Virus record (IMG/VR): IMGVR_UViG_3300049180_000045 | Coordinates: 1 to 51,112 of that record | Reading direction: 5' to 3' (one strand) | Length of the DNA stretch: 51,112 nucleotides | From: a virus | Lineage: Duplodnaviria; Caudoviricetes | In this document: positions 2,101 through 41,501 of the stretch, one piece after another | Layout of the letters: each line of letters begins with the position of its first letter | Numbering within the stretch: position 1 is the first letter of the stretch | Program-made: the position numbers and the translations under genes | The notes under the pieces: generated by a model | The model's database searches: none | What the model was told of the DNA's origin: nothing | The model's input: only the letters and a program-made list of their open reading frames with translations

Positions 2101-4769
2101 CGGGTGGACTTGAACCGGGCGATATCCGCGTTCGGTGCAGCGACGCGGGCGCGCATGTAGTCAAGATCGCCGACCTGGTGCCGCTCGGCCCACCCGAGCA
2201 ACATGGACGGCTTGATCTGGTGGAACACCCGTTGAAAATCCCCGACCTTGATCCGGAACTGCGCGGTCGACAGGTTCGATAGGGCTCGCCCGATCTTCGT
2301 GGCGCTCGGAACGTTCGCGCTAGGCACTCGCGATTTCCACTGAACCTCACCGACCATGGCCTCGGTGTTGACGAGAATTTCCCCCTCGCCCACGAGAACC
2401 AGGTTCTTCGAACTGTTCTTCGTGGTCGGGTCGACGAGATACTTCACGATCCATTCAACAACCGCGCTCGTCATCCCCGAGCCCGTCGCTAGATGCTCGT
2501 GGAACTCGCGAGCTTCACCTTCCACCAGGAAGCGCGAGGACTCGTTTACCTTGCGCGTTTCTCGAAGATAGAGCGCATGTTCGGCGATCTTGTTTTCGTT
2601 GACCCATACCGTCGTAACAGGCGGACCCCCGAGCGATTCGAGGTACTCGGCCGCGCTGTTCGGTGCGTGGATGTAGAGGAAACGCTGCGCGACCGCCGCG
2701 AGATCGTCGGCCGAGAGTTCCTCGCCCGTGTCGAAGATGCGATCATTATTCGCGGCAATGATAAGCCGAATGGCACCATCGAGATTGCAGATCGGGAGGA
2801 ACTTCCGGTTCAGGTTGCGTGAACTAGACCCGATCAGACGGCGGAGTTCAGCGGTAATGCCTCGCCTCTGAGGAAGGGACTCGTCAGCGAACAAAAGAGG
2901 GCAGTTCACTAGAACGTCATTGAACCCTTCGAGCACGCGGCCGAGTTCGCTCGGACCGCCCGGAGTCCAAAGACGCGCGAGACCGCTCGCGAGCAGACCC
3001 TTACCGACCCCCTTGATTCCCCGGATCATCAGCGCGCAAGCCTGACGATCCAAACGCATCACCGAGGCGACCCAATCAAGCAGACGCTCAGACTCCGTTC
3101 CACCGAGCAACGTTAACCAGAGATGGATCTCGGGATGGTTCCTCGGTTTGATGTTTCGGAGAGGTCGCACCGCCTCGAAGAACGTTTGCGTTCGCGCGTC
3201 ATAGTATGATCGTTGAAGCGCGAGCGAGGCTTGAACGTCGCGAGCTACCGTCGCATACCGTGAAAGAATGCCGGCCGCGCTTAGTGCGGTGTCGTTCCCT
3301 TCCTTGTCAGTGATGACGGTCGTAACGGGAGCGCGAGCGAGGTCACGCGGAAGCGAGACGGCGAGATCGTCTTTCGAGATCGGGGCCTGATATTTACCGT
3401 TGACGAAGACCCAAAACGCGCGCTTGTTCTGGATAATCCACCGACGCTCGAAGCGTTCGAGAACTTCCTCGATAGGAAGATCGATCTCTTCTTCGGTGAT
3501 GACACCCTGATCGACAGCCCAGAGGACGAGTTGAGTCTCGGAGTACCCACCCGGGAGATCGCTCGTGGTCTCTTCGTCCTCGGATGCGTCGGGGTCCGCT
3601 TCATCGGTGCCGGCCTCGACATCCGCGATCGCCTGTTCGAGACCTTCGGGCTCGGGGTCGGGTTCGTCTTCTTCGTCATCGCTCGCGAGACGAGCCTCGC
3701 GCGACAGCCGCTCGCGTACCTGACGATTCCACTCGCGACGTTGATCGTCCCGTTGCTGACGGCGATCGCGAGCGCGCTCGATCATGTCGGCCGCTTCCTC
3801 GAACCAGGTCCCCACCTCGGGAGGATCCATCTTCGAGACGCTCGGCCAGAGGATCTGAATCAGCGCGTCGATCGGAACGTCGAGCGGGAGTGAAGTAGCG
3901 AGTATCGAACAGACCTGATTCAGCGTCCCGTCACGCGCGCCGTTCGGTGCGAGAACCTCGCCCTTCAGCACGCGATCGAGTGCTTCGTGTCTCCTCTCGT
4001 CGCCTTCCTTCGAACTTCGTCCGTAAGCCAGCCGCAACGCGCGCAGCCGCTTGTACAGGGGCTCAAAGTCGACCGGACCTCCCGAGGGTGCCGGCTCGGT
4101 GCTTTCGACGGTCCTGGGGGCAACGGGGCGCGTTCCCGTGGGTGTCTTGCCGGCCTCGCCGAGTATCGCGTCGACGTTCAGACTCGCCCCGTGTGAGAAC
4201 GACGCGATCGGCTCGGGTCCCTTCTCGGGCGCGGTCGGCATGAAATACAGCCGACAGAGATCCTTGGTCTGACGATCGGCCGGAAGCTGAAGCCTCTTCT
4301 CGGCCGCTGCTCGGAACCTGTGCCATTCCGAAGCCTTGACGGGTCGCGAGACTGGAATCAGAAGTCGAAGCGCACAGTCGCTCGGGGGCTTGTGGTTGTG
4401 GGTCGAGTGGAGAATCGCCGCGAGCCCGGCTTCGTCCACGCGCGAGGCGATTCCTTCAACCTGGTCGAGCGTAACATGATCGATGTCGAACACCGCGACG
4501 TGAATCGCGGCGACGTTGTCGTTCAGTCGGTGGAACTGTCCGCCCCCACAATCATAAGCTTTCGCTCGACCGTGGTTTCGACACGTCGGGGGGCACGGGG
4601 CGAACTCGACCGGGGACCATGCCTCGCCGAACTTGTGCGAGCAATTCTTTCCCGGGCACGGGTCACAGGCGGTGCGCTTGTGCGTCGCGAGCAACTCGAT
4701 CAGGTCGGTCCACTCTGCCTGTTGGATCTCGGGCTGACCTGCTAGCGAGTTGTAGAACGCGATCAGCAT
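2097..4769 (-). CDS. Primase-polymerase / helicase (AEP-like N-terminus, SF3/NrS-1-like NTPase C-terminus)
   Basis: FDID and STHNH primase motifs, PriCT-like GARDGTL, Walker A GIKGVGKG, Walker B LFADE, motif C IIAANN. Confidence 0.85.
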   Translation of the reverse strand: MLIAFYNSLAGQPEIQQAEWTDLIELLATHKRTACDPCPGKNCSHKFGEAWSPVEFAPCPPTCRNHGRAKAYDCGGGQFHRLNDNVAAIHVAVFDIDHVTLDQVEGIASRVDEAGLAAILHSTHNHKPPSDCALRLLIPVSRPVKASEWHRFRAAAEKRLQLPADRQTKDLCRLYFMPTAPEKGPEPIASFSHGASLNVDAILGEAGKTPTGTRPVAPRTVESTEPAPSGGPVDFEPLYKRLRALRLAYGRSSKEGDERRHEALDRVLKGEVLAPNGARDGTLNQVCSILATSLPLDVPIDALIQILWPSVSKMDPPEVGTWFEEAADMIERARDRRQQRDDQRREWNRQVRERLSREARLASDDEEDEPDPEPEGLEQAIADVEAGTDEADPDASEDEETTSDLPGGYSETQLVLWAVDQGVITEEEIDLPIEEVLERFERRWIIQNKRAFWVFVNGKYQAPISKDDLAVSLPRDLARAPVTTVITDKEGNDTALSAAGILSRYATVARDVQASLALQRSYYDARTQTFFEAVRPLRNIKPRNHPEIHLWLTLLGGTESERLLDWVASVMRLDRQACALMIRGIKGVGKGLLASGLARLWTPGGPSELGRVLEGFNDVLVNCPLLFADESLPQRRGITAELRRLIGSSSRNLNRKFLPICNLDGAIRLIIAANNDRIFDTGEELSADDLAAVAQRFLYIHAPNSAAEYLESLGGPPVTTVWVNENKIAEHALYLRETRKVNESSRFLVEGEAREFHEHLATGSGMTSAVVEWIVKYLVDPTTKNSSKNLVLVGEGEILVNTEAMVGEVQWKSRVPSANVPSATKIGRALSNLSTAQFRIKVGDFQRVFHQIKPSMLLGWAERHQVGDLDYMRARVAAPNADIARFKSTR

Positions 4770-4909
4770 GGATCGCGTTCGTAACCCGGCGGGTCCGTAA
4801 CTGTCAAGCGAGCAACAGTTTTACCGGGTCGATTTGAGCGCGAGCCCTGAACGCAAACAGCCCCATCCCCTAGCACGGGAGATGGGGTCACTTCAAGGCG
4901 CGGACTTGG

Positions 4910-5344
4910 TCAGGGTGCGATTGCGCGGATCGCGGCCCAGAATGAGACGGGCTCGCCGTGGCTTCCGACAACCACCAGCTTGCCCGACTGAACGGCGAGC
5001 CAGAGATCGAGCGCTTCTCGGTAAATCTCGGCCTCGGGGACCTCGCGAGACTCAGTCCGCGTGCGCCTCGCGGCTTCGGCTTGAACGATCTCGCGCTTCG
5101 AGTTCAGGACCCGGAACGTAACATCGTCGCTTTCCCCGGGCGATGCGAGAGTCTTCACGTCGAGTGGATTCGGGCCAAGCCCCTTCTTCCACTTCGAGTA
5201 CCGTTTGTAGCACCTGACGCACAAATCGAGCGCGGCTCCCGACGTGTTCGCCTCGCGGTCACAGTCGACGATCGAGTTCGTCTCGGGGCCTCGAAGCTTT
5301 CCCTTACACCTGACGAACGGCTTCGCTTCTTGGATCATGTTCAT
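4910..5344 (-). CDS. Putative DNA-binding protein (Cys cluster + ribbon-helix-helix-like)
   Basis: C..C..CxxC followed by VTFRV...AEIYREALDLWL, an RHH-like pattern. Confidence 0.55.
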   Translation of the reverse strand: MNMIQEAKPFVRCKGKLRGPETNSIVDCDREANTSGAALDLCVRCYKRYSKWKKGLGPNPLDVKTLASPGESDDVTFRVLNSKREIVQAEAARRTRTESREVPEAEIYREALDLWLAVQSGKLVVVGSHGEPVSFWAAIRAIAP

Positions 5345-6462: not shown

Positions 6463-6491
6463 AACCTAGTCACTAACAGGGCGCGTGTCAA
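6463..6491 (-). promoter_or_regulatory. Leaderless promoter (TTGACA-17-TAGGTT-7-ATG)
   Basis: TTGACAcgcgccctgttagtgacTAGGTTctcaaccATG. Confidence 0.75.
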
Positions 6492-6492
6492 G

Positions 6493-6795
6493 CTACTTGA
6501 ACTGACCCCACTTCTTATCAGGCGAGCAGAACGGACAGACGCGCGCGAGGCTCCCCAGGTTCTTTATCCTGGCCTCGGTGGTAAACGGGACGTTGTTCCA
6601 CACCCTGACCAGGTAGAACGGAATTCCCGCCTTTCTGACATGGTAGAGCAGGCGGGAGCCGCGTCCTTCCTTGTGTGCGTTGACGCGGGCGATGAGGTTC
6701 TGCGTCCATCCGAGATAGTGTCTCGCCTGCTGCTTCTCGGTCCCGAACGGGCGCTCGAAATGAAACAGGTAACACGTCCCGGTCCGCGTCTTCAT
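6493..6795 (-). CDS. GIY-YIG family endonuclease
   Basis: CYLFHF...HYLGWTQNLIARVNAHKEG...E.RIK. The start is set by the promoter spacing. Confidence 0.85.
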   Translation of the reverse strand: MKTRTGTCYLFHFERPFGTEKQQARHYLGWTQNLIARVNAHKEGRGSRLLYHVRKAGIPFYLVRVWNNVPFTTEARIKNLGSLARVCPFCSPDKKWGQFK

Positions 6796-33498: not shown

Positions 33499-34184
33499 CC
33501 TCGCCCCGTAATACCAACCTCGCAGGACTCGTCGACCATGCCGTTACGAGACGGCTCGCGGACATGCGCGTGTCCGCACCTGGTCGCCTGGAATCGTTCG
33601 ACCCCAACACGCAACTCGCGAGCGTGAAGATACTTCTGCGCGAGACGTGGTTCGACGAAGAGGGGAAAGAACAAAGCGAGACGGTTCCGATTATCGTCGA
33701 CGTGCCTGTTCAGTTCCCGGGCGCGGGTGAATACTCACTCACGTTCCCTCCCAAAGAAGGCGATCCGGTCCTGGTTATTTTTGCCGACCGCTCGATCGAC
33801 AAGTGGCTCGATACTGGCGATGAAGTCGATCCCGTGGACCTTCGCCGGCATCACTTGACAGACGCTTTCGCCTTGCTCGGATTCCGGCCGCGTCCAAAAG
33901 CGCTGACAGGTTTCGATAACGAGAACGCGACGATCGGCCGTGACGGCGGTCCGCGAATCGTGTTCAAGCCGAACGAGATTGCACTCGGCGAGGCGAATCC
34001 TACTGACTCGGTCGCGATGAATCAAAAGGTACTCGACGCGCTGACTTCGATCGCGAATGCTTTCAACGCACACACGCACACGACCCCGAGCGGTCCGAGC
34101 GGTAACCCCACACTCGCGGCTGTTCCTACCACCATGACCGTCCCCGCGTCAGTCGGAAGCTCGACCGTGAAGGTGAAGGGTTAA
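33495..34184 (+). CDS. Baseplate central spike (gp138-like)
   Basis: VPVQFP, GD.V...F.DRSID.W, R.H.L.DA, C-terminal HTH metal-binding tip. Confidence 0.88.
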   Translation: MTSPRNTNLAGLVDHAVTRRLADMRVSAPGRLESFDPNTQLASVKILLRETWFDEEGKEQSETVPIIVDVPVQFPGAGEYSLTFPPKEGDPVLVIFADRSIDKWLDTGDEVDPVDLRRHHLTDAFALLGFRPRPKALTGFDNENATIGRDGGPRIVFKPNEIALGEANPTDSVAMNQKVLDALTSIANAFNAHTHTTPSGPSGNPTLAAVPTTMTVPASVGSSTVKVKG

Positions 34185-34187
34185 GCA

Positions 34188-34580
34188 ATGGCGATCAATC
34201 CTGGAACGGGTGTCGCTCGTGATTTGATGATCGACCTTGCGACGAGTGAACTCGTCTGGATCGACGGCGACCTCGTTCTCGTGCGTGGGATCGAGGCGAT
34301 CAAGCAAGACATTACGATTTCACTTCGGACCCACCTCGGGGAGTGCTTCCTTGATACGTCTGTCGGTGTGCCGTGGCTCGACCGTATTCTCGGGCGAGGT
34401 CACTCGAAGGATGACATTCGCGGTGTGCTGCGTCGCGCATTGCTGAAGGTTGCCGGGGTCGTGTCTGTCAACAAACTCGATTTCGATTATTCGCCGTCGA
34501 ATCGTGTTCTTCTCGTGACCTGGTCCGTGTCCACGGATCTCGGCGCGATCAGTGGCGAGACAGGAGTCGAAACCCCGTGA
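34188..34580 (+). CDS. Baseplate wedge / sheath initiator (gp25-like)
   Basis: GECFLDTSVGVPW motif. Confidence 0.85.
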   Translation: MAINPGTGVARDLMIDLATSELVWIDGDLVLVRGIEAIKQDITISLRTHLGECFLDTSVGVPWLDRILGRGHSKDDIRGVLRRALLKVAGVVSVNKLDFDYSPSNRVLLVTWSVSTDLGAISGETGVETP

Positions 34581-36775: not shown

Positions 36776-37792
36776 ATGAGCGTCTCGAAGCCATCCGTAT
36801 TGCCGCGCTGGGCAATCACGTTGTTGGGTGCCCTGTCGTCTCGCGTCGAGGAACCTCCGTCTGGCAAGAAGGACGTAGGCTGGGCCCCGGGAGACACCGT
36901 TCCAGCCGAGTGGTTGAACTGGTTGTTCGTTCACACCTACAAGTGGATCGAGTGGCTTCAGGACATCGAGAATCAGGCGATCACATGGACCGCCCGACAC
37001 ACGATGTCAAACGGTCTCGACGTTGATCAGGGTGTCACTGTTACGGGAGGCGCTACCGTCTCGGATGGTCAGACCGTCAACGGTGGTCAGGTCGTCAATG
37101 ATGGACAGACGGTCAACGGTGACAGTTCGTACGCGAACAAGCTGTCGATCGGCGACATCCTCACACTGGCGAAGAGTATCGTTTTCTCGTCTGTGTGGTC
37201 GGCCGGTTCCTATCCCGAGTTGATGTCGTGGTTTGACGGCGCGGGCGAGAGTGTGCGCCGCGTGCGTATCTATCCCGGCCCTGGTTTGCATATCACCGTA
37301 AACGCTCGACAGAGTGCGCCGAACGTGTGGGTCGCAGATAACACGAGCCAAAACTCGCACCGCATATGGATCGGGGGAGTGTTCGGGGGTCTCAACTACC
37401 ATGCCGCAAAGCAGGGGAGCGATCCCGCGTTGAACTTCGACGGGACGAATTACCTGTTCAGAGTTGACGCGCGAGGGGCTGTCACGGTTCCTCAGTACTC
37501 GGTCACGAATACAATCGGCACGGTCGAGGCCGGAAGCGCGGTCAGCGGAACCGCTCGCATCGTTGCCGGCACAAGCTCGACACGTATCAACACAACCGCA
37601 GCAAGCCTCGCGGCGCAGGCATCGTTCGCGGTCATTTCTCAGGCGACCGCTGATTCGACGGCGACCTCGCTTCGAACGGTTGTGTCGAACGGGTATCTGA
37701 CCGTCTACAGCAACGCGAACGCTACCGGGAACGTCAATTTCTCCTGGTTCATTCTCGGTAGCGGTGCGCTGAATAACCCGACCTCTACTTAG
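36776..37792 (+). CDS. Tail fibre protein
   Basis: P.W...GW.....P.AEWLNW N-terminus, (T/V)VNGG/DG hexapeptide repeats, beta-rich tip. Confidence 0.85.
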   Translation: MSVSKPSVLPRWAITLLGALSSRVEEPPSGKKDVGWAPGDTVPAEWLNWLFVHTYKWIEWLQDIENQAITWTARHTMSNGLDVDQGVTVTGGATVSDGQTVNGGQVVNDGQTVNGDSSYANKLSIGDILTLAKSIVFSSVWSAGSYPELMSWFDGAGESVRRVRIYPGPGLHITVNARQSAPNVWVADNTSQNSHRIWIGGVFGGLNYHAAKQGSDPALNFDGTNYLFRVDARGAVTVPQYSVTNTIGTVEAGSAVSGTARIVAGTSSTRINTTAASLAAQASFAVISQATADSTATSLRTVVSNGYLTVYSNANATGNVNFSWFILGSGALNNPTST

Positions 37793-38331
37793 TCACAACC
37801 CTTACCACCGAGCGCGGGAATCACCAGGTCTCGATAATAATTCGAGGCATAGTAGAACCCGCGCTCGTCCCAAAACTTATGGTCGATCGCGTCCTGCTCG
37901 CTCGTTCCGAGAACCTCGATCTCGTAATAGTGAAGCAATTCGTGGACGAGAGATCCCATATTCAACGAAACGTGAACGCTCCTGTCTCGGTGGTCGTATT
38001 TGCCGAGTGATGCGTTTAGCTCGTCCCCCACCTGGTCACCAGCGTAGACGTAGATCGTCGCGTCGGACATGTCGAACGTCGGATCGATGTAGGGGCCGAC
38101 TCTGAAAACCGATCCTCCGACAGTGCTTCCAGACCACGACATATTAAGAACTCGGCGAGCTAGCTCGACCTGTCCCTTCAGGCATTCTGTATCCCGCTTC
38201 CCTTCGACATACATCACACCGAGACCGCAGCACGTCGAGAGGTCGATCGGTGGGCCGAACTCGTGTCCGTCTTGAGTACGAGCGCAGGCAGAAACGAACG
38301 AAAGAAGCGAAACGAAAAACAGAACGCGCAT
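37789..38331 (-). CDS. Lipoprotein with HExxH zinc-metallopeptidase motif
   Basis: MRVLFFVSLLSFVSA-C lipobox. LGKY...SLVHELLHYYE...H. Confidence 0.75.
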   Translation of the reverse strand: MRVLFFVSLLSFVSACARTQDGHEFGPPIDLSTCCGLGVMYVEGKRDTECLKGQVELARRVLNMSWSGSTVGGSVFRVGPYIDPTFDMSDATIYVYAGDQVGDELNASLGKYDHRDRSVHVSLNMGSLVHELLHYYEIEVLGTSEQDAIDHKFWDERGFYYASNYYRDLVIPALGGKGCD

Positions 38332-38513
38332 GTGTGGACCTCTGGTCGGGGGTTGGTTGTGACCCGACGGGGGTCGTTTTCTACTCGGTCGGCTTCCGAA
38401 CGGCCAAGCCTAAACTGTTAAATTAACGAGTCTGTAACCGAACGTTTTCACGTCTTGTGTTTTTCCCGTTTCGAGTGCTAGTGTCCGTTAGTTTACCCTT
38501 CGATTCCGGAAAC

Positions 38514-38759
38514 ATGGACGCGATCAAAGAACTGACGGGGCTTCTCGCCTCGAACCTGAAGGAAGCACTGATCGCGGTTCAGTTCGCCGCGATCGTGTGG
38601 CTCTACAAAGACGGTCGAACGCGAGAGACCGCGCACCTGTCAACCGCCATGATGATCGCCCCGCTCGCGTCCAAGATCGTCGAGTGTGTCGGCATTCTCG
38701 AACGGGTGACGAGCGCGCTTCTCGCGAGGCGCGACTCGACCAAGGGTCCCGAGGCTTAA
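38514..38759 (+). CDS. Putative holin
   Basis: Small, TM segment ALIAVQFAAIVWLY, upstream of the endolysin. Confidence 0.55.
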   Translation: MDAIKELTGLLASNLKEALIAVQFAAIVWLYKDGRTRETAHLSTAMMIAPLASKIVECVGILERVTSALLARRDSTKGPEA

Positions 38760-38762
38760 CCC

Positions 38763-38933
38763 ATGCTCGCGCGCATCCTTGCCGTGTTCCTCAGAATCTC
38801 TCGGGTTCTCGACCCGAGGCGATACGTCGACGAGCAGAAGCAACAAATCGAGTGCGTGCTTCGCGAAACGGATCAGCGCGTCGACCTGGTTCTCGTGAAG
38901 CTTCGCGCCATTGACCCCGAGTCCCAGCCATGA
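38763..38933 (+). CDS. Small lysis-cassette protein (56 aa, not in ORF track)
   Basis: MLARILAVFLRISRVLDPRRYVDEQKQQ...; ATGA overlap with the endolysin. Confidence 0.55.
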   Translation: MLARILAVFLRISRVLDPRRYVDEQKQQIECVLRETDQRVDLVLVKLRAIDPESQP

Positions 38934-39490
38934 AGACCCGCTTCGTTTCGGCCGAGCAACTCGCGAAGATTTACGAGCGCCCCGCGAAGGTGTTCGTCGA
39001 TCTCGTCGAGCACTTGAACTCGGCCCTTTACGAGTTCGAGATCAACACCCCTCGACGAATTGCCGCGTTCCTCGCGCAAGTCGGACACGAGTCCGGCCGC
39101 TTCCGTTACCTCGAAGAGATCGCCGACGGGAGCGCGTACGAGGGGCGCGAGGATCTCGGCAATAAGAAGCCGGGGGACGGGAAGAAGTACAAGGGTCGCG
39201 GGGTTATTCAACTCACGGGGTTTGCGAACTACTTCGCGGCCGGTCGCGACCTTGATCTCGACCTGGTGAACAACCCGAGGCGCGCGGCGGATCCTGATGT
39301 CGCGTTCATGATCGCCGGTTGGTTCTGGAAGTCGCGGGATCTGAACCTGCTCGCGGACCTTGCGAGCGTGACGAACGAGGGGCTCGCCGTGTTCCGCAAG
39401 GTCACGAGCCGGATCAACGGTGGGCAGAATGGCGCGGCCGACCGCGAGGCGCTGTACGCGCGTGCGTGGGTCGTCCTGGGGGCCGCGTAA
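38930..39490 (+). CDS. Endolysin, glycoside hydrolase family 19
   Basis: AAFLAQVGHES, YKGRGVIQLTG..NY, A.WFW, INGG.NG..DR. Confidence 0.95.
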   Translation: MKTRFVSAEQLAKIYERPAKVFVDLVEHLNSALYEFEINTPRRIAAFLAQVGHESGRFRYLEEIADGSAYEGREDLGNKKPGDGKKYKGRGVIQLTGFANYFAAGRDLDLDLVNNPRRAADPDVAFMIAGWFWKSRDLNLLADLASVTNEGLAVFRKVTSRINGGQNGAADREALYARAWVVLGAA

Positions 39491-40071
39491 TGTCGACCCC
39501 TCCCGAGACCCCTGGAAACTCCCGCGTGTTGCGTACGCTCGCCCTGTGCCTCTGGAGCGGGTATCTCGGGGCGCTCGCGGGAACCTGCTCGCGGGAATCG
39601 GCCGCGCCCGTTCGCGTCGAGCTTCACGAGACCGAGCACGTCGAGCAGCGCGAGCAGGAATCCGAGCGCAAGGTCGAGCACCAGGTCGCCGACGAGAAGA
39701 AGGTCGAACGTCGCACCGTCGAGCGCACGCGGATCGCGCACCCTGACGGAACCACCGTCGAGCACCAGGTCGAGACCTTCAACGCGGACACGGAACGGCA
39801 TCAGGAGACGGCGCGCGTCGAGGTCCGCGAGATCGAGCGCGTCGTTTACCGCGACCGCGAGATCGAGAAGAAGGTCGAACTCGTGCCGCGTAACTGGCGC
39901 GCGGGTGCGCTCGTGGGGCTCGACGTAAGCCGCGCCTCGCTCGTTCCTCCGAGCCCTGGTCCGCTCGTGTTCGGCGCGCATGTCGAACGGCGCATCGCCG
40001 GCCCCGTGTGGGTGGGTGCGTGGGGTGTCACCTCGGGTGCGGTCGGGCTGTCACTCGCAGTCGAGTTCTAG
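39490..40071 (+). CDS. Putative spanin-like protein (N-terminal TM, C-terminal beta strands ending in Phe)
   Basis: 1-nt overlap with the endolysin. TM LALCLWSGYLGALAG, charged spacer, four amphipathic strands ending LSLAVEF. Confidence 0.65.
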   Translation: MSTPPETPGNSRVLRTLALCLWSGYLGALAGTCSRESAAPVRVELHETEHVEQREQESERKVEHQVADEKKVERRTVERTRIAHPDGTTVEHQVETFNADTERHQETARVEVREIERVVYRDREIEKKVELVPRNWRAGALVGLDVSRASLVPPSPGPLVFGAHVERRIAGPVWVGAWGVTSGAVGLSLAVEF

Positions 40072-40145
40072 TTCGAGGACAGGCGAGCGACCCCGAGACA
40101 TGTAGCACTCGGGGCCGCGTTGTGTTTCAATATCCGGTACTCAAC

Positions 40146-41501
40146 ATGCCGAAGCCACGTAAACCGAAAAGTTCCCACGAGACGAAGAACGCACGCGAAG
40201 AAGTCGCGCGTAAACGTCGGCTCGAAAGCGAGTTCGAGTCCCTTCGCCCCGAGGACTTCGACGTTTCGATCGGGAACGACGGTCGCCGCGACAAGACGTA
40301 CGCGAGCGAGAAACGGCAAGAGTTCAGCCGAAGCGACGGGGAATTCTACCAGCTTCTGCGCGCGAGCGGGGGTGACCCTCGCAAGATGCCGAAAGCGGAA
40401 GCGTCTCGACTCGCGTTCTTCCTCGCGGCAAAAAGCGAGCAAGAGAGACGCTTTCAGAATAAGCGCCTCGCTCGGTCGATCGCGATCGCATCCGCGAACG
40501 AAACGCTTCACCTGCGGATGTTGATGCAACTCGCGCAGGAATACTTCACGAACAAGATCAGGCCGGCCGGCTACGCGAAGAGAGTCGTCAAGCGTAACCA
40601 ATCGAGAACGGCGATCATCGTTCTAAGCGATCTTCACTTCGGCTCGGACCTTCGCGCGATCGACAACCCCGAAGCGTTCGGGGCCGAAGAGGAATCGCGA
40701 CGGTTCGCGAGCATCGTTCAACAGGTCAGCGATTACAAGAGCCAGTACCGCAACGATCAAAGGTTGCTCGTGTGTGCAAACGGCGATTTGATCGAGGGTG
40801 CGCTCGGCCATGACCAGAGAGACGGCGCACCGCTGACCGAACAGAAGGGCGCGTGTCTCCACTACTTCCAACAGGCGATCGCGCAGTGGGCTCGTGACTA
40901 TCCCTCTGTTCATATCGAGTGGCAACCGGGCAACCACGGGCGCGACAAGCTTCGTCACCCGGGGCGCGCTACGTCCTCGAAGTGGGACGGTCACGAGTGG
41001 TGGTTAGGTTACTGCCTCGCGCAAATGTGCAAGGGGCTTCCGAACGTCACCTTCTCTGTGCCGTTCCGCGCTGTCAGTTCGATCAAGGTCTATAACCACT
41101 GGTTCCTTCAAACTCACGGCGACACCGAGGTTCGACTCGGCGACCCTGACACGCAAGCGTCGCGGAACGAGAAGGAACTCGCGAAGGTGAACTCGACGCG
41201 GGTATTCGGTCACGAGTACGCGGTCGGCATCTTCGGGCACTACCACAAGCTGCGTCGTTTTCCGTGGCGCTCGATCGAGGCGATCTTTAACGGGTGCCTA
41301 GTCCCCCCGGCCGGCTATGCTCGCGCGGGTGGATACATAAACGAGCGCTGCGGACAGGTCATCTTCGAGGCTACCGAAGATTATCCCGTCGGCGATCTGC
41401 GGAACCTCTACGTCGGAGCGAGCGAGGACCGCGATCCCAAGCTGAACAAGATCGTTAGTCCGTTCCGCTTTCACGAGTCGAATCCGTTCTCGGTTCTGTA
41501 G
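40146..41501 (+). CDS. Calcineurin-like metallophosphoesterase / nuclease
   Basis: SDLH, GDLIEG, GNHG, THGD, GHYH: all five motifs. Confidence 0.88.
   Translation: MPKPRKPKSSHETKNAREEVARKRRLESEFESLRPEDFDVSIGNDGRRDKTYASEKRQEFSRSDGEFYQLLRASGGDPRKMPKAEASRLAFFLAAKSEQERRFQNKRLARSIAIASANETLHLRMLMQLAQEYFTNKIRPAGYAKRVVKRNQSRTAIIVLSDLHFGSDLRAIDNPEAFGAEEESRRFASIVQQVSDYKSQYRNDQRLLVCANGDLIEGALGHDQRDGAPLTEQKGACLHYFQQAIAQWARDYPSVHIEWQPGNHGRDKLRHPGRATSSKWDGHEWWLGYCLAQMCKGLPNVTFSVPFRAVSSIKVYNHWFLQTHGDTEVRLGDPDTQASRNEKELAKVNSTRVFGHEYAVGIFGHYHKLRRFPWRSIEAIFNGCLVPPAGYARAGGYINERCGQVIFEATEDYPVGDLRNLYVGASEDRDPKLNKIVSPFRFHESNPFSVL

Follow-up and report, generated by a model that had tools for sequence, protein, structure and literature searches.

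A survey of spanins (SpaninDB; Kongari et al. 2018) describes 58 T1-type u-spanins with a periplasmic part of about 100 aa that is predicted to be beta-rich and is nearly Cys-free, and its Table 1 gives 91 of 677 genomes, ~13% of phages of Gram-negative hosts, as having no detectable spanin (PMC6139136). In one phage without spanins, phiKT, a preprint presents gp28, a 'disruptin', as the outer-membrane breaker (bioRxiv 10.1101/515445).

The present analysis concerns P0001, the product of a gene in a stretch of viral DNA of 51,112 nt, the whole of which is called the window below, and which a sequence-only reading had proposed to be an inverted unimolecular spanin. P0001 resembles T1 gp11 in being one polypeptide proposed to link both membranes and in being encoded by the last gene of a lysis cassette, and the likeness to the gp11 type extends to a putative periplasmic part that is also ~100 aa, beta rather than coiled coil, and nearly Cys-free. 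The two differ in the kind and the order of their anchors: gp11 has an N-terminal lipobox providing an outer-membrane lipid anchor and a C-terminal inner-membrane helix, whereas in P0001 the helix comes first and the chain closes with a domain of four predicted beta strands, the last residue of which is Phe; P0001 is also without sequence similarity to gp11 (no PHROG match). It also differs from phiKT gp28, an amphipathic, cationic peptide of small size that lacks membrane anchors (bioRxiv 10.1101/515445). With lambda Rz/Rz1 it shares the place after the endolysin, an Rz-like N-terminal helix and the presumed task, but it lacks a coiled coil, an Rz1-like lipoprotein ORF and a periplasmic Cys pair. 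Its C-terminal part recalls the trimeric autotransporter anchors of YadA, Hia and AtaA, each chain of which likewise ends in four amphipathic strands with an aromatic last residue, and anchors of the YadA type are encoded by phages (BFVD). Unlike these proteins, P0001 gives no profile match and has no helical linker before strand 1, and its N-terminal part is most simply placed in the periplasm rather than on the surface as a passenger. Finally, the putative layout of P0001 recalls TonB and TolA, in which a signal-anchor precedes a charged spacer of low complexity and set length and the C-terminal domain makes contact with the outer membrane. The C-terminal domains of TonB and TolA are, however, soluble and have barrel proteins or Pal as their partners, unlike the beta domain proposed here.

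The P0001 gene and its cassette

The features of the gene and of its surroundings, all on the plus strand of the window, are the following.

38457..38759, plus strand: holin candidate, a 100-aa ORF, named from its position only; two moderately hydrophobic segments (1.59, 1.54)
38763..38933, plus strand: 56-aa ORF between holin candidate and endolysin; best hydropathy 0.89, not clearly membrane-spanning
38930..39490, plus strand: GH19 endolysin (Pfam PF00182, 8e-12; phrog_181, 5e-59)
39490..40071, plus strand: P0001 gene (ORF translation, 193 aa)
39520..39597, plus strand: predicted N-terminal helix, residues 11-36 (AlphaFold2 H11-36)
39583..39894, plus strand: charged, beta-prone spacer, residues 32-135 (composition, family lengths)
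39691..39801, plus strand: predicted two-stranded beta hairpin, residues 68-104 (AlphaFold2 E68-83/E89-104, pLDDT 76-81)
39895..40068, plus strand: C-terminal domain of four predicted amphipathic beta strands, residues 136-193 (AlphaFold2, alignment, periodicity)

The P0001 gene closes a cassette of the lysis type and is coupled in translation to the GH19 endolysin gene, the ATG of the former and the TAA of the latter sharing one base (TAATG), and a GGGGG run lies 7 nt 5' of the start. The coupling downstream of an endolysin that had been claimed from the sequence thus stands, both in the overlap and in the identity of the upstream ORF, which is GH19 by Pfam and by PHROG. This endolysin has no hydrophobic N-terminal (SAR) segment, its best 19-residue hydropathy being 0.85. 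Searches of Pfam, PHROG and NCBIfam gave no family match for the holin candidate, nor did Pfam and PHROG for the 56-aa ORF, and a promoter and terminator scan of 37600-40400 gave nothing above chance. The closest relatives of the terminase and endolysin are from phages of the diderm hosts Aeromonas, Pseudomonas, Paracoccus and Myxococcus.

Family size and spread

The P0001 family is large, restricted to phages and unannotated, and its three-part architecture is conserved, which upholds the layout drawn from the single sequence and extends it across the family. P0001 matches 679 cluster representatives (E<=1e-3), almost all from viral contigs; among the matches listed, lengths are 141-253 aa and nearly all are aligned to their own C-terminus. 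A search for longer fused forms of the C-terminal domain gave none, which is weak evidence. Family-wide statistics below rest on 154 sequences unless stated otherwise. P0001 falls into no family of Pfam (E<=0.1), PHROGs or NCBIfam, and a Pfam scan of 146 members (E<=0.01) returned no shared family, no YadA_anchor and no outer-membrane family. A sequence-profile search of the PDB had its best hit at E 0.087, on the helix and spacer, and a single-sequence search of viral contigs with P0001 gave no related locus. Two motif-limited probes of 185,579 bacterial species genomes found no family member, one having no match and the other a single match to a different, OMP-like protein; in viral contigs the same probes yielded 11 loci and 3 loci. 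Counting against the tether proposed below, one member carries the label of a Ktedonobacteraceae MAG (a 2-kb contig), a group not known to have a classical outer membrane. The literature searched holds no experimental datum on any member, though the spanin papers might list one under another label in their supplementary tables.

N-terminal helix and spacer

The hydrophobic N-terminal helix that had been read from the sequence is reproduced by AlphaFold2 at residues 11-36, with a hydrophobic core at residues 16-31 and two Arg before it, though it is weakly hydrophobic in P0001, where the best 19-residue Kyte-Doolittle mean is 1.34 against a family median of 1.94. Half of this segment (50%) is Gly, Ala, Ser or Thr. 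Across the family the uncharged run is typically 18 residues long (median; IQR 15-19), is preceded by an n-region with a median of 2 Lys/Arg, and ends with small residues at -3 and -1 (G31, 94%). The hydrophobic stretch reaches this conserved Gly without a polar c-region, and in the alignment columns the Gly is followed by R/T32, Y/F/C33 and S/T34, a junction in which R32 is conserved at 74%, Y/F33 at 50%, S/T34 at 56% and P40 at 92%, with Trp ahead of it in 89%. Run length and Gly suit both a signal-anchor and a signal peptide, so that from the alignment the helix may be either.

The spacer of ~100 residues rich in Glu, Arg, Val and Thr was likewise borne out, comprising 104 aa (E 21%, R 14%, V 14%, T 9%) with a net charge of -6. 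Its length is conserved in the family (median 101 aa, IQR 96-107) and its sequence is not, the exception being the turn of the predicted hairpin, P85-D86-G87-T88, which is nearly invariant (P 79%, D 88%, G 99%, T 74%). Conserved length with variable sequence is the pattern that a distance-spanning tether would be expected to show. Cys is absent after G31 in 140 of the 154 sequences. The AlphaFold2 model of P0001 has no helix beyond residue 36, and periplasmic coiled-coil helices of the i-spanin kind are thus not predicted.

C-terminal beta domain

The four C-terminal peptides named as strands in the sequence-only reading (136-146, 159-169, 173-181 and 184-193) coincide with strands of the full-length AlphaFold2 model (E136-144, E159-170, E173-180 and E185-191; pLDDT 89-96), and a model of the domain alone also has four strands (mean pLDDT 94). 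The C-terminus is thus predicted to be beta and not helical, and its periodicity is of the beta type: the faces of each strand have family-wide mean hydropathies of 1.9-3.1 on one side and -1.2 to 0.1 on the other, and the hydrophobic moment is larger at 170 than at 100 degrees, by a factor of 1.6-5.8. The terminal Phe that had been pointed out in P0001 is a family trait, the last residue being aromatic in 146/154 sequences (Phe 134, Trp 12), and positions 187, 189, 191 and 193 have hydropathies of 2.5-3.7 where positions 186, 188, 190 and 192 have -0.4 to -3.0. The BAM beta-signal consists of alternating hydrophobic residues with Phe or Trp at the end, and the C-terminal pattern of the family, in its alternation and terminal F/W, agrees with this definition. 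Strands 1 and 2 of the domain are joined by a long variable loop and strands 2 and 3 by a tight, conserved E-R-R-x-x-G-P turn, and the chain ends in E-F; long loops on one side with tight turns on the other are the usual arrangement of outer-membrane barrels.

Foldseek searches of the PDB with the full and domain models gave none at E<=0.001 among the matches listed, and the best-ranked, all with E of at least 0.19, were BAM-bound EspP, Hia (3 entries), AtaA and a TamAB hybrid barrel. The four-strand meander is a generic shape. In BFVD, phage YadA-anchor proteins match locally with a probability of 0.80-0.94; hhalign aligns strands 2-4 to an OMP-like DUF6268 protein (probability 88%), and a structure search of the ESM Atlas returned only viral hypothetical clusters. 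Multimer prediction with three copies of residues 105-193 reached a median score of 0.41, against a mark of 0.42 and controls at 0.00, and so weighs on neither side of the question of oligomerisation. In mean-field DCA of 175 C-terminal domains (Meff 164) the registers fit strand pairs 1-2, 2-3 and 3-4 and two 1-4 pairs, at couplings not above chance, as the maxima of column-shuffled nulls exceeded those observed in 40/40. As a lead only, a basic residue occurs at position 137 or 190 in a mutually exclusive manner (Fisher p 6e-4, phylogeny ignored).

Search for a lipobox and an o-spanin partner

LAGTC had been named as a possible lipobox of P0001, a suggestion that fails on the alignment, where the Cys33 column holds Tyr in 28% and Phe in 22% of sequences and where a loose lipobox occurs in only 9/154. 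P0001 is therefore not taken to be a lipoprotein, because the cysteine of LAGTC is not conserved.

The absence of an embedded or adjacent o-spanin holds for the ground covered, as the lipobox scan found no lipoprotein ORF inside the P0001 gene or within 400 nt 3' of it; the same scan recovered lambda Rz1 and Bor (2/2) as controls. In the whole window it gave one credible lipoprotein, a 180-aa HExxH protein on the minus strand at 37789-38331. Among 30 family loci, none had a convincing o-spanin-like lipoprotein ORF inside or within 400 nt after the family gene, the weak case being L035. Four complete family-bearing genomes held only lipoproteins of 155-180 aa without a C-terminal TMD, and G010 had no credible lipoprotein. 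Lipoproteins of 155-180 aa with HExxH are encoded close to the cassette in both the window and G008, and away from it in G004. That of the window shows no sequence relationship to the G004 and G008 proteins, nor are the lipoproteins of G000 and G008 related to each other.

Genomic context of homologues

Context was counted at 36 loci with an assessable upstream gene, which were found by motif-limited probes and are not a random sample of the family. The family gene stands directly after a known endolysin in 6/36, mostly with overlaps of 1-22 nt, and these endolysins belong to three unrelated families: GH19 in the window, CHAP in L028 and L049, and GH24 in L063/L058, L067 and L068. In a further 6/36 it follows a DUF5675 gene directly, in the order holin-like TM gene, DUF5675, family gene, small TM gene, and in three loci, with a similar cassette, an 80-aa gene precedes it; G008 has a GH24 lysozyme gene three positions upstream. 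Comparable lysis-type cassettes are thus found at 12-16 of the 36 homologue loci. A conserved small TM gene stands after the family gene in 7 loci and is absent from the window. Within G001-G010 a GH19 endolysin occurs in 0/10 records, where other enzymes are used, and no identity was found for the 248-aa ORF upstream of the family gene in L035.

In 14/36 loci the family gene lies in the replication module of large Mx1-like phages, near primase genes, with a ClpP-like gene at -1 or -2 in nine of these and a helicase at -1 in five. Two further loci follow secreted trypsin-like proteases, and the neighbours of the family gene include proteases of three kinds. A GH19 endolysin is found on the other strand, 2.4 kb away in Mx1, a Myxococcus phage whose homologue is WNM70284, and 3.9 kb away in L045. 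Synteny with endolysins, expected from the sequence-only reading, is accordingly divided: the family gene stands directly behind three unrelated endolysin families, but in 14/36 loci behind helicase or ClpP-like genes. The placement in replication modules speaks against a universal lysis role and would suit an early non-lysis role.

Discussion

We tentatively propose that P0001 works like a spanin at the outer-membrane step of lysis, as an envelope tether of one chain whose outer-membrane anchor is made of protein beta structure, a possible reading that we place somewhat short of probable. The inverted unimolecular spanin first suggested from the sequence is partly supported, in its architecture, in its beta C-terminus with terminal Phe/Trp, in the lack of a lipoprotein partner and in its recurrence directly behind endolysins. 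That the helix stays in the inner membrane, that BAM is needed, that subunits oligomerise, that the spacer zips and that the protein acts in lysis at all is inferred. The chain would be exported by Sec, with the N-terminal helix held in the inner membrane as a signal-anchor. The C-terminal domain of about 57 aa would then be put into the outer membrane by BAM as a homo-oligomeric barrel, homo-oligomeric because four strands cannot close a barrel alone, eight or more being needed for a generic BAM-assembled barrel. The ~100-aa spacer of conserved length would cross the periplasm through the mesh of the cell wall. As the co-expressed endolysin removes the wall, the spacer may zip around the PDGT hairpin and, since the two ends of the hairpin lie at the same end, zipping would draw the membrane anchors together, with the result that the outer membrane would be ruptured or fused. 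Held more tentatively again is the wider proposal that the family constitutes a third structural class of spanin, with an inner-membrane N-terminal helix, a BAM-inserted homo-oligomeric barrel, no lipid anchor and a PDGT zipper.

The evidence for the beta anchor and for the coupling to endolysin would serve equally for an outer-membrane protein with a cleaved signal, in which Sec export would be followed by a cut after the conserved Gly and an oligomeric beta anchor would leave the ~100-aa part in the periplasm, with the membranes not bridged. The length of the uncharged run (15-19 residues), the small residues that end it at -3 and -1, the n-region with its median of 2 Lys/Arg and the weakly hydrophobic helix of P0001 all agree with such a signal. 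We nevertheless consider it somewhat unlikely, as the conserved junction and the preceding Trp (89%) are unusual for a discarded signal or a mature start, there is no polar c-region ahead of the Gly, and a spacer with one free end would have no evident need for a conserved length. Processed in this way, the protein might nonetheless contribute to lysis, by binding the wall or through a weakened or perforated outer membrane. Cleavage of the signal is also part of a quite improbable reading of P0001 as a miniature trimeric autotransporter, with a 12-strand trimer barrel and the ~100-aa part exported to the cell surface. The layout of signal, passenger, four-strand anchor and terminal aromatic residue is the same, and the local structural matches that rank best include the Hia, AtaA and YadA anchors and phage YadA-anchor proteins; these fold matches are, however, all non-significant (E>=0.19), neither P0001 (E<=0.1) nor 146 members (E<=0.01) match Pfam YadA_anchor, AlphaFold2 places no helix in residues 105-135, the site of the pore-filling coiled coil, and the N-terminal junction motif is conserved.

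A non-lysis envelope protein, concerned with superinfection exclusion, receptor masking or envelope stabilisation and adjacent to endolysins through late expression or mosaic gene order, would suit the replication-type surroundings of the 14/36 loci behind helicase or ClpP-like genes and the protease neighbours of three kinds. It is unlikely given that in 12/36 loci the family gene is coupled directly, its start overlapping the preceding stop, to endolysins of three unrelated families or to DUF5675, far above the few per cent that we estimate for a random gene in a phage of 50-80 genes, and that Mx1 and L045 have a GH19 endolysin within 4 kb; large phages, moreover, commonly scatter their lysis genes, as T4 does. 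Very improbable is an i-spanin-like inner-membrane protein whose beta domain binds an outer-membrane partner of phage or host instead of inserting. It would account for the N-terminal helix and periplasmic domain, and candidates for a partner exist in the HExxH lipoproteins of the window, G008 and G004, and in the small TM gene conserved after the family gene in 7 loci. Yet no partner is conserved family-wide, the window being without the small TM gene and G010 without a credible lipoprotein, the 30 loci hold no convincing o-spanin-like ORF, no coiled coil is predicted in the periplasmic part, and the hydrophobic face and terminal F/W favour membrane insertion. Least credible of all is a canonical u-spanin of the T1 gp11 type, with LAGTC as lipobox and a C-terminal transmembrane helix (VWVGAWGVTSGAVGLSLAV). 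P0001 does have a Cys after the helix, and its last 19 residues are its most hydrophobic window (1.49), but the Thr at -1 falls outside the accepted lipobox, and this candidate was rejected on the family alignment, in which Cys33 aligns with Tyr/Phe and the loose lipobox is confined to the 9/154, and on the C-terminus, which is predicted as beta (pLDDT 94), carries conserved Gly, Pro, Arg-Arg and Glu and has a family median hydropathy of 1.06.

If the proposed third structural class proves true, P0001 would to our knowledge be the first polypeptide known in which the inner-membrane anchor is a helix and the outer-membrane anchor a barrel. Spanins are now recognised by a lipobox and a transmembrane helix, and a family anchored by protein beta structure would escape such searches. 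Those requiring a lipobox would class the phages of the P0001 family as spanin-less, and a third class of spanin, if true, would account for part of the ~13% of phages so described. It would also offer a tractable system in which one small protein is handled by Sec, periplasmic chaperones and BAM while tethered to the inner membrane, and in which BAM substrate delivery and membrane fusion by beta-rich proteins would be directly testable. Even the outcome of a plain phage outer-membrane protein would give a name to many hypothetical genes, with 679 representatives in this family.

Gene position and predicted structure of P0001

The window is a complete virus record (51,112 bp, CheckV 100%; GC 59.7%), in which tail-fibre and baseplate genes precede two short ORFs, the endolysin gene and the gene of P0001, a member of the family described here.

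Genes of the lysis-type cassette in the window
5′ of the endolysin: 100-aa ORF with two moderately hydrophobic segments, no family match
5′ of the endolysin: 56-aa ORF, no family match
38930-39490, plus strand: GH19 endolysin (PF00182, 8e-12; phrog_181, 5e-59)
39490-40071, plus strand: family gene, P0001, 193 aa (ORF translation)

The ATG of P0001 and the TAA of the endolysin ORF have one base in common, and an exonuclease gene (phrog_284) lies 62 nt downstream of the family gene, an order that makes this the last gene of a lysis-type cassette and agrees with the earlier claim that it alone is coupled downstream of the endolysin. The endolysin is 49.5% identical to that of Myxococcus phage Mx1. 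The public gene call uses a GTG at 39526 (Val13; 181 aa, P0002) instead of the ATG overlapping the endolysin stop, and the helix is retained with both starts.

An AlphaFold2 model of full-length P0001, built with 146 homologues, has an N-terminal helix at residues 11-36, a long hairpin of strands 68-83 and 89-104, and C-terminal strands at 136-144, 159-170, 173-180 and 185-191 (pLDDT 89-96), which coincide with the four peptides that the sequence-only reading had taken for strands. The C-terminal 69 residues modelled alone give the same four strands (pLDDT 94, pTM 0.70). The spacer between helix and sheet (residues 32-135) is composed of 21% Glu, 14% Arg, 14% Val and 9% Thr.

A large viral family with a constant architecture

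In an exhaustive profile-free search, 679 cluster representatives matched P0001 at E<=1e-3; the number falls to 186 at E<=1e-10 and to 2 at E<=1e-30. Among the 150 matches listed, length is 141-253 aa and the alignment reaches the match's own C-terminus in nearly all. Listed source contigs are <=158 kb. Pfam, PHROG and NCBIfam hold no family for P0001, and no family is common to 146 members. Among annotated phage genomes, a member occurs only in Mx1, labelled 'hypothetical protein'. The family looks phage-restricted, since the nearest ESM Atlas clusters, likewise labelled 'hypothetical protein', are 91-97% viral and two motif-limited probes found no member in 185,579 prokaryote species, one genome each, while recovering 11 and 3 loci in viral contigs. 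At the family edge, DUF6808 (PF20647) is matched by Foldseek with probability 0.98 and E 0.013 (BFVD row 4), and occurs in 12-24% of members of two nearby ESM Atlas clusters and in 1 of 146 family members (E 4.5e-4); it may be a sister family, and a full-text literature search found no paper mentioning it.

Conservation across 154 family sequences follows this architecture from end to end. An uncharged run (median 18 residues, IQR 15-19), preceded by Trp (89%), closes with G31 (94%), then R32 (74%), Y/F33, S/T34 and P40 (92%). The spacer is tightly kept in length (median 101 aa, IQR 96-107, range 75-120) and barely conserved in sequence, with the exception of a P-D-G-T turn (G87, 99%), and Cys is absent after the helix in 140 sequences. 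All four strands are two-faced, with a mean hydropathy of 1.9-3.1 on the hydrophobic side and of -1.2 to 0.1 on the other, where residues are polar or small. A long, gapped and variable loop joins strands 1 and 2, a conserved E-R-R-x-x-G-P turn (R168 99%, G171 97%, P172 92%) joins strands 2 and 3, and 134 sequences end in Phe and 12 in Trp. This alternation of long loop and tight turn is the layout usual in outer-membrane barrels, whose loops are long on the outside and whose turns are short on the periplasmic side, where both ends of the chain also lie.

Searches of solved structures with the full and domain models gave no match at E<=0.001. Seven of the eight best rows for the domain model, none significant, are outer-membrane barrel pieces, namely EspP bound to BAM (two entries), Hia (three), AtaA and a TamAB hybrid barrel; the remaining row is a phage portal, and YadA ranks 45. 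Local matches in BFVD (62-71 columns, probability 0.80-0.94, E 0.67-0.83) include phage proteins that carry a YadA-like anchor annotation. These matches, and the profile match given next, are resemblance rather than membership. None of 146 members matches the YadA_anchor profile, and P0001 has no predicted helix at the place of the pore-filling coiled coil of autotransporters. By hhalign, strands 2-4 of the family profile match the hairpin of an OMP-like protein from a Verrucomicrobiales MAG (88% probability, E 2.8e-6, 28 columns).

OMP-like protein of the Verrucomicrobiales MAG (locus L024)
4014-5171, plus strand: 385 aa, signal peptide, terminal Phe, borderline DUF6268 (22.9 bits, cut-off 22.8)

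A 'VERRIAGPVW' hairpin is common to this protein and the phage family.

Genomic context of the homologues

Loci were taken from viral and metagenome contigs, ten of them enlarged, and upstream genes were classed by PHROGs and Pfam and by tblastn among loci. The count base is 36 records with an assessable upstream gene; L071, whose family gene opens the contig, the fragments L019 and L020, and the non-member L024 were left out.

Gene upstream of the family gene in 36 records
Known endolysin, directly upstream, 6: GH19 in the window; CHAP in L028, L049; GH24 in L063 (and L058, same contig), L067, L068
DUF5675 in the endolysin slot, holin-like TM gene before, small TM gene after the family gene, 6: L027, L054, L056, L057, L059, L060
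80-aa phrog_6978-like gene, similar cassette, 3: L025, L061, L062
ClpP-like protease at -1 (-2 in L026), 9: Mx1 (L002), L026, L029, L030, L031, L046, L047, L050, L053
Helicase, directly upstream, 5: L034, the contig of L013/L022, L016, L018, L045
Secreted trypsin-like protease, 2: L064, L069
Other or unknown, 5: L014, L015, L032, L035, L070

Direct coupling to three unrelated endolysin families, in a sample biased by the motifs used for finding loci, is the kind of mosaicism that a lysis-cassette gene would be expected to show. In G008 (L032/L033) the third gene upstream, across the terminal repeat, encodes a GH24 lysozyme, and a GH19 endolysin is on the other strand at 2.4 kb in Mx1 and 3.9 kb in L045.

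DUF5675 (phrog_1501), labelled 'unknown function', is flanked by a holin-like TM gene and the family gene, in the slot that an endolysin occupies in other cassettes, and is a candidate new endolysin family. A conserved single-TM protein of 75-100 aa directly follows the family gene in seven loci (L054, 5520-5750; L059, 5456-5704; also L056, L057, L060, L061, L062); it is absent from the window and has no family match. The 72.8-kb contig of L058 and L063 carries the lysozyme and family-gene pair twice, about 36 kb apart, with lysozymes 93% identical, and may represent a ~36-kb genome in concatemeric form; of its two family-gene copies, one ends ...SWER, not in F or W.

In every inspected case a DnaB-like helicase gene precedes the ClpP-like gene, usually with a primase gene before that. 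The ClpP-like protease coupled to the family gene beside these genes in large Mx1-like phages has no signal sequence, and in the low-GC phages L064 and L069 a secreted trypsin-like protease replaces this neighbour.

Search for another spanin

The absence of an embedded or adjacent o-spanin, noted for the window, held on a wider scale. A lipobox scan that recovers Rz1 within lambda Rz gave four matches starting within the family gene or <=400 nt after it in 30 loci, none convincing. The best (L035, on record G010; 6476-6640, reverse strand of the locus, 54 aa) has a weak lipobox-like start, ..LAGSAC, and overlaps the family-gene 3′ end in another frame, an arrangement resembling an 'overlapped' o-spanin; it is not conserved among related loci and probably represents an off-frame ORF in GC-rich DNA. 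A separate lipobox scan, which recovered both lambda lipoproteins, Rz1 and Bor, in a 3-kb control region, covered four complete genomes carrying the family. It turned up lipoproteins of 155-180 aa, all lacking a C-terminal helix, and otherwise only short ORFs judged spurious by sequence, the 51-aa ORF of the window being the one checked in detail.

Predicted HExxH lipoproteins, 155-180 aa
Window, 37789-38331, minus strand
G004, 3429-3908, minus strand
G008, 34029-34496, minus strand
G008, 46106 onward across the terminal repeat (L033/L032)

HExxH is a zinc-protease motif. The window gene is divergent from the lysis cassette, 126 bp away, and its protein has no sequence relation to those of G004 and G008; the M10-like HExxH gene of G008 overlaps the end of the GH24 lysozyme gene by 4 nt at its start and is itself the second gene upstream of the family gene.

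A T1-type u-spanin would otherwise be a fair reading of P0001 alone, because its hydrophobicity peaks in the last 19 residues (1.49); it is excluded, as the Cys of 'LAGTC' aligns to the Y/F column and a loose lipobox occurs in only 9 of 154 sequences. A 2025 viral lytic protein survey (PMC12596118) screens u-spanins for a TM region and a lipid box, and the term 'barrel' is absent from its available text. In full-text literature searches no paper was found that describes the P0001 family or a beta-barrel-anchored spanin or lysis protein.

Model and alternatives

We propose, tentatively and at somewhat below an even chance, that the family forms an envelope-spanning, spanin-like tether. The inverted-spanin interpretation is supported in part: the architecture, the beta C-terminus, the terminal Phe or Trp and the lack of an o-spanin partner in the loci scanned stand, while the bridging of two membranes, the barrel and the role in lysis are what we infer from them. 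The main rival, which we regard as only somewhat less likely, keeps the outer-membrane anchor and has the helix cleaved after the conserved Gly as a signal peptide; the helix statistics are compatible with it and equally with a signal-anchor. A non-lysis envelope protein is more doubtful again: coupling to endolysins speaks for a lysis gene, and the Mx1-like group, behind helicase and ClpP-like genes, fits a lysis cassette less simply and may leave room for such a role. Other explanations hold smaller shares.

The tether model that most likely accounts for the family is the simplest using every conserved feature, with each step beyond the architecture conditional. The protein would be exported by Sec, its N-terminal helix remaining as a signal-anchor, and the C-terminal sheet would be inserted by BAM as a homo-oligomeric barrel; the spacer of set length would pass through the wall. 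After endolysin action the spacer would zipper around the PDGT hairpin and, because both hairpin ends lie together, the two anchors, and hence the two membranes, would be drawn closer. This parallels the collapse model proposed for Rz/Rz1 and, by analogy, for beta-rich gp11 (PMC6139136). The observation first made on a single gene is confirmed and extended to a large family.
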